Below the pieces are notes generated by a model. It was not told the DNA's origin, did not search any database, and was given only the letters and a program-made list of their open reading frames with translations. DNA of 10,730 nt. Source: a virus. Of the stretch, positions 1,768-8,191 are shown one piece after another. The number at the start of each line of letters is the position of its first letter. Positions within the stretch are counted from its first letter, which is position 1. Location of the stretch: the UHGV virus genome UHGV-1357920; one strand, 5' to 3'. The position numbers were made by a program, and so were the translations under genes.

Positions 1768-1877
1768 TTTGACCTCCATTTTCTGTAGGCTTCTACGGCT
1801 TCACGAAACATCTTTTCATCGCCAATAAAAGTGGCGATAGTGAATTTAGTCTGGATAGCCATAAGTGTTTTATCCAT
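1764..1877 (-). CDS. kil: Kil-like small protein (37 aa)
   Basis: Internal start of track ORF 1764..2003, giving MDKTLMAIQTKFTIATFIGDEKMFREAVEAYRKWRSK. It has an AGGAG SD at 8-nt spacing, and its start overlaps the 3' end of cIII, as lambda kil does. The N-terminal sequence resembles what I recall of lambda Kil; this is memory only and the protein is shorter than lambda Kil (47 aa). Confidence 0.5.
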   Translation of the reverse strand: MDKTLMAIQTKFTIATFIGDEKMFREAVEAYRKWRSK

Positions 1878-2010
1878 TTTTGGGAACTCCTGGCTGATTA
1901 AGTATGTCGATAAGGCGTTTCCATCCATCACGTAATTTACGTGTGATTCGTTCAAGTAAAGATTCGGAAGGGCAGCCAGCAACAGGCCACCCTGCAATGG
2001 CATATTGCAT
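1870..2010 (-). CDS. cIII: CIII (FtsH inhibitor that stabilises CII), 46 aa
   Basis: MQYAIAGWPVAGCPSESLLERITRKLRDGWKRLIDILNQPGVPKNG matches lambda CIII as I remember it almost residue for residue, but ends 8 aa earlier. Strong SD AAGGAG precedes the ATG at 2010. The 80-aa track ORF (1870..2112) is an N-terminal over-extension into the terminator region. Confidence 0.8.
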   Translation of the reverse strand: MQYAIAGWPVAGCPSESLLERITRKLRDGWKRLIDILNQPGVPKNG

Positions 2011-2071
2011 GGTGTGCTCCTTATTTATACATAACGAAAAACGCCTCGAGTGAAGCGTTATTGGTATGCAT

Positions 2072-2097
2072 ATAAAAAAGCCCTCACACTGGAGGGC
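2072..2097 (-). terminator. Rho-independent terminator (minus strand) upstream of cIII
   Basis: Stem GCCCTC (2080-2085) / GAGGGC (2092-2097) with a 6-nt loop; on the minus strand it is followed by a U6 run (plus-strand A-run 2074-2079). A second weaker hairpin, AACGC/GCGTT (2040-2059) followed by U4 on the minus strand, sits just downstream. Confidence 0.6.
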
Positions 2098-2203
2098 AAA
2101 GAAGATTTCCAATAATCAGAACAAGTCGGCTCCTGTTTAGTTACGAGCGACATTGCTCCGTGTATTCACTCGCTGGAATGAATACACAGTGCTTATTCGC
2201 AGC

Positions 2204-2530
2204 CTACATAATCATTCCGGTTATTATTACCATTTCAATATCACTATCTTTCATAATGATTGGAGTTGAGTTATCAACTTTACTTTTACTCCATTTTCCT
2301 GCATCAGTTTTTACCGCTCCACAATAAGAAAGCCAATCATCATCACAATGTTCTGGATCACTAATTCTGACAAGAACACGTGATAGTGCTTTTTCGATAC
2401 TTTCATCACAATTAGCATTTGTGTAATTGCCGTGAGACGATTTCAAATCGTTAACTTCATCTTCATTGGCATCAAAAATATAGATTTCAGTCGACTCTGG
2501 AACATTTTCATAAACCATTAAAACTTTCAT
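2204..2530 (-). CDS. Hypothetical acidic, Cys-containing cytoplasmic protein, 108 aa (AT-rich gene)
   Basis: Intact ORF with a GGGG SD 5 nt from the ATG. The sequence is visibly AT-rich relative to the core phage genes. Acidic protein with three Cys; no motif recognised. Confidence 0.55.
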   Translation of the reverse strand: MKVLMVYENVPESTEIYIFDANEDEVNDLKSSHGNYTNANCDESIEKALSRVLVRISDPEHCDDDWLSYCGAVKTDAGKWSKSKVDNSTPIIMKDSDIEMVIITGMIM

Positions 2531-2552
2531 TTTTACCCCATATTGTTTATGC

Positions 2553-2579
2553 CAAAAATAAAGGCCGACTATGCGGCCT
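2553..2579 (-). terminator. Rho-independent terminator (minus strand) after the 149-aa membrane-protein gene
   Basis: Stem AGGCCG (2562-2567) / CGGCCT (2574-2579), loop ACTATG; on the minus strand it is followed by UUUAUUUUU (plus 2553-2561). Confidence 0.7.
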
Positions 2580-2583
2580 GAAA

Positions 2584-3033
2584 TTACTTAACCAATGATG
2601 CTGCATATTCGATAAGGTAAAGCTTTGGGGCCAGCCAAATTTTTAACCAAGTCATATTGGTTACTGCACCAATAATAAAAATCCCCCACAGAGTCAAAAC
2701 TCCAACCAATGGCACGATAAGAAGATTAATATCACCTTTGCTATCCCAAACCATTGTCGGCCTGTATTTGGGATTTCCTTTCTCCCATGAATATCCTTCA
2801 TCACCGATTTTACCTGTTTCAACTCTTTGCCACTGCTTCTTCATAAACCATAAAACCAGAGGGATTGTTAGAATGGCCATTAATGTTTTAATCAGACTGT
2901 CAACAATATTCCATAGCAGCAACTGATGAACAACATCAGGAATCTGTGCCTGGCTAAATGAAACAGCCGCGTCTATTCCATTGCTGGCTTTTTGCAGTAG
3001 TTCTACGAGAATCTTGTTTGCTTGTTCTTCCAT
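2584..3033 (-). CDS. Hypothetical two-TM inner-membrane protein, 149 aa (AT-rich gene)
   Basis: Intact ORF with SD AAGGTG. Two hydrophobic helices (about LIKTLMAILTIPLVLWFM and INLLIVPLVGVLTLWGIFIIGAV). AT-rich; its own terminator lies immediately downstream. No family recognised. Confidence 0.6.
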   Translation of the reverse strand: MEEQANKILVELLQKASNGIDAAVSFSQAQIPDVVHQLLLWNIVDSLIKTLMAILTIPLVLWFMKKQWQRVETGKIGDEGYSWEKGNPKYRPTMVWDSKGDINLLIVPLVGVLTLWGIFIIGAVTNMTWLKIWLAPKLYLIEYAASLVK

Positions 3034-3179
3034 ATATCACCTTAAATAGTGGATTGCGGTAGTAAAGATTGTGCCTGTCTTTTAACCACATCAGGCTCGG
3101 TGGTTCTCGTGTACCCCTACAGCGAGAAATCGGATAAACTCTATTCACCCCCTACAGAGAGAATGATGGAGATTCACCG

Positions 3180-3719
3180 ATGAGTAACTGGTGGCAGGAA
3201 CTATTACGTTTCTTCCTGCGTGGTCTTACGCTACAACAGTTAATTCATATGCTTATTATTTTAATTGCCTTGATAATAATCACCCCCGCATCAATTAAAG
3301 AGTGGGTAGATATAAGGAACCCAGAAATACTTCCAGATCACTGGATGTATTACGCAATGCTTTTGTGTATCAGTTATGTTCTGAACAGGGTGATGGAGTT
3401 TATATTTCTGGCATCTTCAGACAGATATAAAAAATATCTCAGTAAGAGAGATGAGGCTAAAGTAATTGTGGAGACTGAGCGCCTGTTCAATTCTCTGAGT
3501 ATTCAGGAAAAAGAGGTTTTAGCATTTGCTGTTATGGCAAATAACAAAATCGTACTTAAGCACGGCGATCCGGTCGCTTTATCTCTTATGAGAAAAGGCC
3601 TTCTCCATCGCTCAGGTGTGACTTACAGCGCGTCAGGTAAAGAGAAATTTGTTATACCTGACGTCTGGTTCCATGAGTGTTATATGCGCTTTGCTGGTAA
3701 AGCTGATGAGCTAATTTAG
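3180..3719 (+). CDS. sieB: SieB-like superinfection exclusion membrane protein, 179 aa
   Basis: Plus-strand ORF embedded among leftward pL-operon genes and convergent with N (its 3' end is 22 nt from the N stop), the arrangement I recall for lambda sieB. N-terminal hydrophobic helices (LIHMLIILIALIIITPA; YYAMLLCISYVLNRVMEFIFLA); SD GGAG 8 nt upstream. The call is based on position and membrane topology, not on a verified alignment. Confidence 0.5.
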   Translation: MSNWWQELLRFFLRGLTLQQLIHMLIILIALIIITPASIKEWVDIRNPEILPDHWMYYAMLLCISYVLNRVMEFIFLASSDRYKKYLSKRDEAKVIVETERLFNSLSIQEKEVLAFAVMANNKIVLKHGDPVALSLMRKGLLHRSGVTYSASGKEKFVIPDVWFHECYMRFAGKADELI

Positions 3720-3725
3720 TTCCTC

Positions 3726-3753
3726 GACGGCGGGGGATCGTCACCTCGCCGTC
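3726..3753. terminator. GC-rich hairpin at the convergent sieB-like / N junction (possible bidirectional terminator)
   Basis: Inverted repeat GACGGCG (3726-3732) / CGCCGTC (3747-3753), extendable to about 10 bp with a G-U pair. It overlaps the N stop codon and is followed on the plus strand by a partly T-rich tract (AGTTGTTTGGATTT). Confidence 0.4.
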
Positions 3754-4124
3754 AGTTGTTTGGATTTCCGGTAGCCTGCCGCGTAAATGGCTACGTTTGG
3801 AAGACATACACCAGTTTCTGGTTGCTTATGTCCAAACTCATTCGCGTACACAATGGCCGCTCGCTCCAGATTGCGTCTGTATTCTTTCTGTTGCCAGATC
3901 ACGTCCTGTGCCATGAACTTAATTGGCTTAGCGTCTTCTATGCGCTCAGGCGTTTCGTGAGTACCTTTAGCCTGAATCTGCGCTCTGCTTAGAGTAGGGC
4001 GGTGTAATACTTCTGAACTTATTGCTTCTTCGCGGGCCAGCACGCCGTTAGCTAATGCCTTTGCCTTTAAACGCTCACGACGACGAGAACGTGAATTGCC
4101 TTTGAACTGAGTTCTGCGTGTCAT
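3741..4124 (-). CDS. N: N-type transcription antiterminator, 127 aa
   Basis: N-terminal arginine-rich motif (GNSRSRRRERLKAKALANG). The C-terminus ...AIYAAGYRKSKQLTAR closely resembles the C-terminus of P22 gp24/N as I recall it. SD AGGAGG upstream; a P22-type boxB lies in the leader. This is the first gene of the leftward early operon. Confidence 0.8.
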   Translation of the reverse strand: MTRRTQFKGNSRSRRRERLKAKALANGVLAREEAISSEVLHRPTLSRAQIQAKGTHETPERIEDAKPIKFMAQDVIWQQKEYRRNLERAAIVYANEFGHKQPETGVCLPNVAIYAAGYRKSKQLTAR

Positions 4125-4635: not shown

Positions 4636-5661
4636 TTATGGGCGAGTGATGGTTGATGCGTTTCCGTTTTCTATTACACCTGCTCGTATCGTGTAGCTTC
4701 CCAAGATTTTTACTGTCCTGTTTTCTTTCATTGCATCAAACAGTATGGCGATCTCGTCTTTATCATCTATGAACGACGTGTCCACCGAAACAGGGAAACT
4801 GTCTTCACTAGATGGTTCGCGGCAGCTTAGGGTTATCTTTTCCGCAGTACGCTTGATTCCATCAATGACTAATTCAAGGTTTCTTTCTTCTTTTTTTGCT
4901 TTTTCGATAGGGTTTTTGATTAGTTCGTGGATTTCTTTGTTAGACAGTTCAACTGTGCTTGCGCCTGATATGACAATTTTGTCAGCATCAGACGCGCCTT
5001 TTAATACCCCTGTATACGCTTTTGCAGTATGCTCTTGAATCCCTTCGGCGCGCTCTACTGCATCTATGCCCGCTTTAGCTCTAATCGCCTCAAGCATTCC
5101 GTCCCTTAATATCGTCATGCGCTCGTTTTCTGATTTAATCTTGGCTTCTTCGAGCTTTGTTTCTTCTTGCTTGACTTCTACTTCGGCTTTTTTCTCTAAG
5201 TATGATGTACCAACCCATGCACCGCCTATAACGGTGACAGCAAACAAGAAGCATAATGTTTTTTGGCTAGGACTCATACCGTGTGTTACCTTCTCAAAGG
5301 CTTTACCGAATGCTTCAAAAAGCTCTGTTAATGCAGCAAGTATATCAGTACAACCTTCATTAATGGTAAAGATGATCTCTGCTTCTTCTTTATCTTTACC
5401 GGTTAACCTTTGAAGGTTGTCAGTTTTATATTTTATTAGTGTGAAAACTTTATAAATTTCAGTCTGAAATTCGCATAAACCCTGAGCTAGAGGAGATGGA
5501 AGCGTTCCGTTGTAGCGAGAAGGATCACCATAAATCTTAAAATTCACATTATTGAAGAGGTCTAACTTGATCCTGTCGATAGTGATCTCTTCGCCACCAT
5601 CTAACCTTGCAAACAAAGATTCAATGTCGTCCAGACTTGAAACATTAATAATATCTTTCAT
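4636..5661 (-). CDS. Hypothetical 341-aa single-pass membrane protein in the cI-downstream (rexAB-equivalent) slot; candidate lysogen-expressed exclusion/defence protein
   Basis: Intact ORF with SD AGGTG 5 nt from the ATG, immediately downstream of and co-oriented with cI. One predicted TM helix (about LCFLFAVTVIGGAWVGTSYL), a soluble N-terminal region of about 130 aa and a K/E-rich, probably helical, C-terminal region. AT-rich; followed by a strong terminator. No known motif recognised. Confidence 0.75.
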   Translation of the reverse strand: MKDIINVSSLDDIESLFARLDGGEEITIDRIKLDLFNNVNFKIYGDPSRYNGTLPSPLAQGLCEFQTEIYKVFTLIKYKTDNLQRLTGKDKEEAEIIFTINEGCTDILAALTELFEAFGKAFEKVTHGMSPSQKTLCFLFAVTVIGGAWVGTSYLEKKAEVEVKQEETKLEEAKIKSENERMTILRDGMLEAIRAKAGIDAVERAEGIQEHTAKAYTGVLKGASDADKIVISGASTVELSNKEIHELIKNPIEKAKKEERNLELVIDGIKRTAEKITLSCREPSSEDSFPVSVDTSFIDDKDEIAILFDAMKENRTVKILGSYTIRAGVIENGNASTITRP

Positions 5662-5741: not shown

Positions 5742-6446
5742 TCACGAACTTTTCAGCCATTCCCTTGCCTCGATGTCATCCAGATGGCGAGACTGCTTCA
5801 GAATACCAGCAACATACTCCACCTTTGCTACTTGATGATAAGGCAACGTTATTGGCCTGTGGTCCTGGTTGATGCTTGTAAATTGGTATTCTCCATCTCT
5901 GTCATAGCCAAGAACCTTAATCATGTTGTGTCCTTCAACGGTTCTGACAAACACCTCATCACCCGGGAATACTTTGGTGTTAGGCTCAATGAGTACATAT
6001 TCTCCTGATTTTATTCTGGGCCACATGCTGTCTCCTTTCACACGAAGACCAAAGGCATCTGGATCATCGCTATAAATTTTGAGCCACCCATCGCGCTCTT
6101 CGGTCATCTCGATGGCACCATCAACACCAAGAATTGCCTCACCAACCACGCGCACTAACCCTTTTCTTACCTGACCGACAAAAGTTAAAGAATCTGAGCA
6201 TGATGCAATTGGTGTTACATCATGTACCAAATCAAGCCACCCATTAGGTAACCCAAGCGCGGCTTCAAATTTTCTTGCTAGTTTATCCCCTATGTTTCGA
6301 GTGCTTTTTTCACCGGAGACTTGCGTGAGTTGAGAAGGGCTAACCCCAAGCTTATCGGCAAAGCTTGCATTAGTGTTACCCGCGATTTTTTTATGCTCAT
6401 CTAGCAAAAACGCCAGATTCGATTTGCGAATATCTTTGTTTTCCAT
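5742..6446 (-). CDS. cI: CI-type prophage repressor (N-terminal HTH plus C-terminal S24/LexA-like autocleavage domain), 234 aa
   Basis: The N-terminus has an XRE-type HTH (...ASFADKLGVSPSQLTQVSG...). The C-terminal domain carries the S24 peptidase signature GDSMWP (Ser nucleophile) and a downstream Lys (MIKVL). It is divergent from the cro-like gene across an operator-rich 113-bp spacer. Confidence 0.85.
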   Translation of the reverse strand: MENKDIRKSNLAFLLDEHKKIAGNTNASFADKLGVSPSQLTQVSGEKSTRNIGDKLARKFEAALGLPNGWLDLVHDVTPIASCSDSLTFVGQVRKGLVRVVGEAILGVDGAIEMTEERDGWLKIYSDDPDAFGLRVKGDSMWPRIKSGEYVLIEPNTKVFPGDEVFVRTVEGHNMIKVLGYDRDGEYQFTSINQDHRPITLPYHQVAKVEYVAGILKQSRHLDDIEAREWLKSS

Positions 6447-7253: not shown

Positions 7254-7397
7254 ATGCGAAAAACGCAGGAAAATAAACGCGTTAATCACCGAAAAGATGT
7301 GCTACGTGACCAGTTTTATCAGGGGGTTAATCCAGCAATAGCTGTGCCACTGAGAGAAATACTTAACAGGTACAAAACTTCGGAGAAGTCAAAATGA
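7254..7397 (+). CDS. Small basic hypothetical protein, 47 aa (internal start of track ORF 7086..7397)
   Basis: ATG at 7254 is preceded by SD GAGG (7243-7246); its stop overlaps the start of the O-like gene (ATGA at 7394-7397), suggesting translational coupling. Sequence MRKTQENKRVNHRKDVLRDQFYQGVNPAIAVPLREILNRYKTSEKSK. Could be a spurious ORF. Confidence 0.4.
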   Translation: MRKTQENKRVNHRKDVLRDQFYQGVNPAIAVPLREILNRYKTSEKSK

Positions 7398-8191
7398 GCA
7401 TGAATCTTATGGCTAAGGCCATGAATATAAAGGTTGGCAACCCACTGAGAAAACTGGTTCTGATTAAACTTGCCGATAACGCCAATGATAATGGCGAATG
7501 CTGGCCTTCATATCAACATGTCGCTGACCAGTGTGAGGTGAGCAGATCGACAGTAAAAAGTCACATTAGGGCACTGGAAGAGATGGGGCTTTTGAAAAGG
7601 GAATTCAGAAGAAAAGGAGAGCTTAACCAGTCAAACGTTTTTTATCTGACGCTGGATAATGCACAACAAATCCAACCAGAATCAGGTGGGGCAGGAGCTG
7701 CCCGGGGTGGGGCAGGAGCTGCCCGGGGTGGGGCAGGAGCTGCCCTAGGGGGTGGGGCAGGAGCTGCCCCCAGAACCTATCACTCTTTTGAACCAGTCAA
7801 TGAACCTAAAAACATTATGTTCGAACATGTCCGAACGGAGTGTGAAAAAACTCCTGACCGTCACGAAGAAACCGACAAGGCATTCGAGGAAATATTCTGG
7901 TGTGCAGGCATGCGGAAAGCCGGGAAGAAAAACGCAGCTTCGGCATTCAGAACACAGTTCAGGGAATGGCGTAAAACTACCAGGGGTACGGCAAGCGAGT
8001 TTGCCACGATGCTGGCAGAAGACATCGCATGCAGGAGTGGTAAGCAGTTCGGATTCGACAGGTTGTTACCATCGAGCTACCTGAACGGTCAACGCTGGAA
8101 CGACGAGAAGCCAGAAACTATTCAACCGCAACCCAAACCATCATCCGCAATCACCGTATCGAAAACTGGCTACGTGTTTTTCGACAGGTGA
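7394..8191 (+). CDS. Replication initiator (lambda O-like role) with N-terminal winged-HTH and an iteron-encoded Gly/Ala-rich linker, 265 aa
   Basis: The N-terminal HTH region (CWPSYQHVADQCEVSRSTVKSHIRALEEMGLLKRE) is typical of phage replication-initiation proteins. The central peptide repeat GGAGAAR is encoded by four tandem DNA iterons. The gene sits after cII, where lambda O and P22 gene 18 lie. Confidence 0.7.
   Translation: MSMNLMAKAMNIKVGNPLRKLVLIKLADNANDNGECWPSYQHVADQCEVSRSTVKSHIRALEEMGLLKREFRRKGELNQSNVFYLTLDNAQQIQPESGGAGAARGGAGAARGGAGAALGGGAGAAPRTYHSFEPVNEPKNIMFEHVRTECEKTPDRHEETDKAFEEIFWCAGMRKAGKKNAASAFRTQFREWRKTTRGTASEFATMLAEDIACRSGKQFGFDRLLPSSYLNGQRWNDEKPETIQPQPKPSSAITVSKTGYVFFDR
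7686..7769. repeat. Four tandem iterons (GTGGGGCAGGAGCTGCCC; period 21, 21, 24 bp), putative phage origin inside the initiator gene
   Basis: Directly visible copies at 7686-7703, 7707-7724, 7728-7745 and 7752-7769, followed by a relatively AT-rich stretch (about 7775-7835). This is the same architecture as lambda ori inside O. Confidence 0.7.

Follow-up and report, generated by a model that had tools for sequence, protein, structure and literature searches.

Two neighbouring genes in the ral region of a lambdoid phage are probably independent accessory cassettes

When a gene for a small membrane protein and a gene for a small soluble protein lie side by side in a phage accessory slot, do the two form a functional unit? 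This question is raised by two adjacent ORFs in the virus genome UHGV-1357920, from which a stretch of 10,730 nucleotides (the window) was analysed. An initial annotation, made from the sequence alone, had placed both ORFs on the minus strand in the slot where lambda carries ral and ea10, between a sieB-like gene and cIII, and had seen in them a moron-like acquisition that might encode an exclusion, abortive-infection or toxin-antitoxin-like module. Our results indicate that the two genes are independent cassettes and not a paired module.

ORF calls together with Pfam and PHROG profiles identify the window as the immunity and early region of a lambdoid phage. The two ORFs, encoding proteins of 108 amino acids (2204-2530, minus strand) and 149 amino acids (2584-3033, minus strand), are co-oriented, 53 nt apart, and lie between sieB/N and cIII in the early-left (pL) operon, so that both the coordinates and the flanks initially assigned to them were borne out. 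The downstream anchor of this variable slot is cIII (1870-2010, minus strand; Pfam Lambda_CIII, E=9e-31), and this call is confirmed by a cIII thermoregulator RNA that overlaps the start of the gene (1965-2023, minus strand; Rfam RF01804 Lambda_thermo, 88.5 bits). The upstream anchor is an N-type antiterminator (3741-4124, minus strand; Pfam N_peptide, E=2e-15), and the immediate upstream neighbour on the opposite strand is sieB (3180-3719, plus strand; Pfam SieB, E=3e-20; phrog_1301). The minus strand also carries a cI-type repressor (5742-6446) and, beyond cIII, kil, a Sak4-like annealase and an SSB-like protein, and the rightward genes are cro, cII and replication genes.

Two other genes of the window deserve mention. 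Between the cI-type repressor and N, in the place of lambda rexAB, lies a 341-aa ORF (4636-5661, minus strand) that matches phrog_6191, a family with no assigned role; it yielded no Pfam, PADLOC or meaningful NCBIfam match and is a candidate prophage-expressed defence gene. In the replication-initiator-like protein (7394-8191, plus strand), which is of the HTH_36 type in related loci, the peptide GGAGAAR is repeated three to four times at about 7690-7790; this implies tandem DNA repeats within the gene, which recall the origin iterons within lambda O.

Both genes of the slot had been described as AT-rich, and this holds for one of them. The 108-aa gene, with 33.0% GC and a GC3 of 22.9%, falls in the lowest 0.24% of windows of the same length, whereas the 149-aa gene, with 39.6% GC, stands at the 12.7th percentile and is no different from sieB (39.6%) or the 341-aa ORF (40.4%).

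The distribution of the two genes was then compared. The adjacent pair was found in none of 5,426 complete E. coli genomes, of which 112 contain the core of the 149-aa allele and 16 the 108-aa gene, and in no phage record. In the reverse direction, among the 76 IMG/VR loci that have the 149-aa allele plus enough downstream sequence, three carry the 108-aa gene. Exact copies of the 108-aa protein occur widely (325 index blocks). In a set of 31 distinct lambdoid loci, the gene upstream of it is an allele of the membrane protein family in 10, Ral in another 10, and at least six others or none in the remaining 11. Altogether at least nine kinds of upstream neighbour were seen (the 149-, 140- and 121-aa membrane alleles, Ral, and proteins of 81/105, 156, 207, 210, 72 and 62 aa), and five kinds downstream (cIII or a protein of 322, 103, 122 or 138 aa). 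Since the membrane family is present at approximately 235 of 2,501 cIII-bearing places in E. coli, a base rate of about 9%, roughly 1.5 of the 16 complete genomes that carry the 108-aa gene are expected to have it upstream by chance; two do. In the IMG/VR sample a membrane allele lies upstream in 5 of 19 108-aa loci, two to three times the rough base rate, and there may be a weak association between the two, the samples being small and phylogenetically non-independent. At distant loci, 21 of the 108-aa family and four of the membrane family, the other family was never nearby (0/25).

A single functional module, with a membrane effector and a soluble partner acting in superinfection exclusion, abortive infection or as a toxin-antitoxin system, would be in keeping with the tight, co-oriented arrangement of the genes, with the constant order in which a membrane allele of 149, 140 or 121 aa directly precedes the 108-aa gene in 10 of the 31 lambdoid loci, and with the presence of sieB next door. 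Its distribution largely refutes this reading, which we regard as very improbable: the pair is absent from the complete genomes and rare in the reverse direction, the 108-aa gene has many alternative upstream neighbours, the 2 of 16 compare with a base rate of about 9%, and linkage is lacking at distant homologue loci. In addition, a terminator separates the genes, phages with an empty site retain the membrane gene without the 108-aa gene, and neither protein has a PADLOC match. The initial annotation had proposed a check of co-occurrence in other prophages; in this survey the pair did not behave as a linked unit.

In the E. coli genomes H133-H135 and H139, the gene directly 5' of the 108-aa gene is annotated as an 'Nmad5 family putative nucleotide modification protein'. 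It may equal the 207- and 210-aa upstream genes of loci L028 and L035, and is another accessory cassette of the N-to-cIII slot.

If the genes are not partners, how did they come to be adjacent? The anatomy of the slot suggests an answer. Between them, a terminator scan detected an intrinsic-terminator-like hairpin, AGGCCGCATAGTCGGCCT, with the T-run TTTATTTTT (2553-2579, minus strand). The hairpin and T-run had been recognised initially and assigned to the 149-aa gene as its own terminator, but at each of the 31 lambdoid loci the element lies before the 108-aa gene, whatever gene comes further upstream, and it is therefore not private to the 149-aa gene. It exists in two sequence variants, with pairing kept in both, and is also present in Gally and Sf6, neither of which has the 108-aa gene. 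It is a shared cassette-boundary linker.

Gally and Sf6 represent the empty site. They match positions 2543-3043 and 2074-2192 of the window, with flank identities of 87-98% overall (96% in Gally), and keep the membrane gene, but have nothing of 2193-2542. The 108-aa gene is thus an AT-rich insertion of 350 bp (2193-2542, minus strand) that comprises only its RBS and ORF. This insertion is bounded on one side by the conserved terminator and on the other by a sequence annotated in Sf6 as a mosaic boundary. The latter (2074-2192, minus strand), the equivalent of Sf6 'bsq4', is 97.5% identical to Sf6 24148-24268, a segment that largely overlaps the annotated bsq4 (24156-24268) and the terminator tL2A (24147-24175). 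It holds a hairpin at 2158-2189 and a tL2A-like terminator (2072-2097, minus strand); a second terminator-like hairpin was found by the scan just upstream of cIII (2032-2059, minus strand). With any neighbours, homology around the 108-aa gene starts inside the upstream terminator (2566-2579) and ends just past the downstream one (2070-2074).

The hairpin at 2158-2189 (minus strand), with a stem of 9-11 bp (GTGTATTCA / TGAATACAC), lies just past the stop codon of the 108-aa gene, within the bsq4-like sequence. In the diverged locus L033 the equivalent hairpin has a wholly different stem (TATCGACT / AGTCGATA); in L032 and L099 the hairpin is kept though the remaining 3' region is deleted, and it also occurs in the empty-site phages. 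It is possibly an mRNA-processing or stabilising element.

The annotated order in Sf6 is N - gene 36 - ral - gene 34 - bsq4/tL2A - gene 33 - cIII - kil, and Ral holds the same slot in related prophages. In the slot, optional cassettes follow one another in a set order (sieB, ral, the membrane protein, the 108-aa protein, and the 322-aa protein and others) up to cIII. They are joined by short conserved linkers, namely the terminator hairpins and the bsq4 boundary sequence, at which they are exchanged.

The distribution and the empty-site comparison indicate independent cassettes, and we consider it probable that the two genes are unrelated single-gene accessory cassettes, neighbours by chance in the hypervariable N-to-cIII ('ral') region of the lambdoid early-left operon. 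Cassettes are swapped at the short linkers (terminator hairpins, bsq4), and the 108-aa gene is an insertion between two of these. The 149-aa gene is an allele from a family in which the core, but not the constrained termini on either side of it, is replaced. Both genes would be transcribed from pL, with N-modified RNA polymerase reading through the intervening terminators into them.

When would such genes be expressed? A crude scan, which also misses the promoter that sieB must have, found no sigma-70-like promoter site upstream of either gene. Because both genes are in the pL orientation without a promoter-like site, we infer on the lambda/P22 paradigm that they are delayed-early lytic genes and not lysogen-expressed morons. 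Homologues of the two families likewise lie in early or early/middle regions, as in the rIIB-ndd...t region of T4-like phages and in N4-like and phi92-like phages.

One or two classic morons, expressed from the prophage and each benefiting the lysogen alone through phage defence or lysogenic conversion, would be an alternative. The 108-aa gene is compositionally foreign and resembles the lambdoid morons in being a presence/absence insertion between conserved flanks with markedly lower GC, and the region has other lysogen-expressed exclusion genes (sieB). However, it lacks a promoter-like site of its own and its flanking terminators are also found in empty sites; with no promoter-like site and no private terminator at either gene, the classic moron anatomy is absent. 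What stands of the moron-like acquisition proposed initially is exchanged accessory cargo, with the 108-aa gene as a foreign insertion. Furthermore, members of both families are frequent among strictly virulent phages (T4-like, N4-like, phi92-like and 48-kb Klebsiella phages), in which a benefit to the lysogen is meaningless.

T4 Imm and P22 SieA are examples of small phage membrane proteins that exclude superinfecting phages, which would favour a moron role for the 149-aa gene. Its product resembles them in being a small two-TM phage membrane protein, with virulent carriers as for Imm. In contrast to Imm and SieA, the conserved parts of the membrane family are the extramembrane termini, common to phages with quite different virions, and the 121-aa allele that was tested is not among the reported exclusion hits. 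That allele is orf47 in Supplementary File 3 of Silas et al. (bioRxiv 10.1101/2023.04.06.535777), with two TM segments by TMHMM, and is absent from the genes reported there with a counter-defence, cell-death-trigger or exclusion phenotype; the exclusion challenge phages were T2-T7, P1 and lambda, and Imm and SieA were used as controls. On balance, the moron reading is unlikely.

The 149-aa product has two hydrophobic segments (about residues 43-65 and 102-126), in agreement with the two-TM protein initially described. It matches phrog_3054 over its full length (E=1.1e-62, residues 1-149 on profile positions 1-137 of 137), and a word-sharing search gave 516 homologues. The nearest named relatives are the Sf6 gene 34 protein and SPN9CC AEW47744.1 (orf47) of PHROG 3054, two-TM proteins from the same ral-cIII slot. 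These 140- and 121-aa alleles are 51-52% identical to the 149-aa protein overall and near-identical to it only in the N-terminal 40 or so residues and the C-terminal 21, whereas the TM1-loop-TM2 core is replaced and varies among the three alleles. Codon comparisons with diverged alleles gave 9-10 synonymous changes and one non-synonymous change in the C-terminus, against about 12 synonymous and about 28 non-synonymous changes in the core. These counts indicate termini under protein-level constraint and a fast-evolving core.

The architecture and motifs recur in Pseudomonas, Vibrio, N4-like and phi92-like phages, and the contrast between near-invariant termini and a core with more than two non-synonymous changes per synonymous one extends over these and the lambdoid phages (the window and loci L001, L004, L116 and L132-L137). 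In phi92 and in N4-like and Vibrio phages, the gene is surrounded by replication and nucleotide-metabolism genes of the early/middle class, not by lysis genes, and in the virulent phages it has no recurrent partner, the downstream gene encoding an AAA ATPase, a collagen/YadA-like protein or an unknown product. A holin was considered and rejected, as the 149-aa gene belongs to the early-left operon and its homologues lie outside lysis cassettes. No Pfam match was obtained, including SieB (PF14163) and Imm (PF14373), in a search that recovered the neighbouring sieB (E=3e-20). The AF2 model is weak (pLDDT 68.7), and the charge distribution is ambiguous as to topology. Tentatively, the protein may be read as a factor of the inner membrane that acts early: its conserved helices at the N- and C-terminus would bind a conserved partner, and the TM core would serve as a fast-evolving anchor or specificity element.

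On the related IMG/VR contig L120 (4001-4450), the 149-aa gene is disrupted by an indel and an in-frame stop after about residue 20. Such a case might suggest that the ORFs of this recombination hotspot are non-functional remnants or annotation noise. This is almost certainly not so for the pair in the window: both families are large, with motifs conserved over a wide diversity of phages, the 108-aa protein gives a confident structural model, and synonymous changes far exceed non-synonymous changes in the termini of the membrane protein.

Family and defence scans placed neither protein. Pfam gave no family for either at E<=0.01, Ral (PF11058) included, NCBIfam gave noise only, PADLOC gave no family at E<=1, and a literature search by accession and PHROG identifier found nothing on either family. 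The initial statement that neither protein is recognisable was therefore upheld. Sequence-profile searches of the PDB with the 108-aa and 149-aa families also gave noise only. Both genes share with lambda ral the slot, the pL orientation and the behaviour of a single-gene cassette, but their products have no sequence or family relationship to Ral.

The 108-aa product is acidic (pI 4.36, net charge -11, 21 D+E against 10 K+R) and contains three Cys, as had been noted. Although a word-based search with this protein found almost no relatives, it matches phrog_4658 end to end (E=2.9e-38, residues 1-108 on profile positions 2-109 of 109), and a profile search at E<=1e-3 recovered 737 representatives of the family. 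All 74 diverse relatives that were sampled match phrog_4658, and none of them has a Pfam match. The acidity is shared family-wide (median pI 4.4-4.5, median net charge -10 to -11), and phrog_4658 is a phage-only, consistently acidic and widespread family. The emphasis initially laid on the Cys was misplaced, since the three are not conserved across the family, and a Cys-based metal or redox site was rejected on that ground.

Homologues detected by tblastn, 27-35% identical, occur in virulent phages, namely 48-kb Klebsiella phages, T4-like phages (Straboviridae) and a phi92-like phage (Stephanstirmvirinae). The 108-aa protein is only 27-40% identical to the virulent-phage members of PHROG 4658, and shares with them the acidity, the predicted fold and the motifs MK.L.IYENIPE, HG.Y.N and ID.VV.TG. 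In T4-like phages the homologue lies in the early accessory region rIIB-ndd...t, between ndd and the holin gene t, and in FBKp34 among Ter genes. The lambdoid version is a near-clonal cassette (97-100% identical).

Structure prediction, which the initial annotation had recommended together with remote homology, gave a confident model for this protein and a weak one for its neighbour. The model of the 108-aa protein (pLDDT 94.6) is confident over the fold, which is alpha/beta and for which no solved-structure match was found; the modelled fold is apparently new. Across the 74 diverse members only P11, N38 and G105 are conserved at 90% or more, which argues against an enzyme, a candidate that was rejected because the broad family has no invariant catalytic-type residues. 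Identity with orf184 of Silas et al. was likewise rejected, the two being unrelated (hhalign probability 0.1%), and no member of the 108-aa family is present in the accessory-gene library of that study (bioRxiv 10.1101/2023.04.06.535777).

An anti-restriction protein that mimics DNA, of the Ocr/ArdA/Arn type, would account for the small size and strong acidity of the family, and for the position of the gene directly 3' of ral in 10 of the 31 lambdoid loci and in the early accessory region of T4-like phages. However, the modelled fold resembles no solved mimic, and we find this reading improbable. The best candidate, though still a doubtful one, is a counter-defence or host-takeover factor that binds or inhibits a host protein stoichiometrically: the protein is small, acidic throughout its family and without an invariant catalytic-type residue set, and its gene belongs to the early genes of temperate as well as virulent phages, often beside ral.

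Silas et al. (bioRxiv 10.1101/2023.04.06.535777) treat the ral-containing region as accessory and rich in counter-defence genes; it also contains cell-death-trigger genes, and orf184 of that region triggers gop-beta-cII. In a more far-reaching reading, which we think somewhat unlikely, phrog_4658, with the 108-aa protein as its representative, would be a class of small acidic inhibitors with a fold not recognised before. It would be common to lambdoid, T4-like, phi92-like and Klebsiella phages and would neutralise a defence or housekeeping protein that enterobacteria have conserved. With the same reserve, and as a separate matter, the Sf6-gp34-type membrane family could represent membrane factors of a new class that phages make early and that take part in an arms race.

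Overall, the situation is a common one, in which two uncharacterized accessory genes occupy a variable slot that is well known; one comes from a moderately interesting orphan family and the other from a membrane family whose pattern of conservation is unusual. Our findings indicate that a small membrane protein need not form a module with a small soluble protein encoded beside it in a phage accessory slot, and they provide a clean example of how accessory genes of the lambdoid early-left operon are exchanged at linkers made of terminators and 'boundary sequences'. The membrane family, with its constrained termini and a core that changes rapidly, is a second, weaker lead. The 108-aa family is the practical lead: it is large, phage-only and uniformly acidic, has a confident model without a PDB match, and occurs in temperate and virulent enterobacterial phages. 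Anti-defence proteins that are now coming to light have such a profile, and the family is a reasonable candidate for functional screening.
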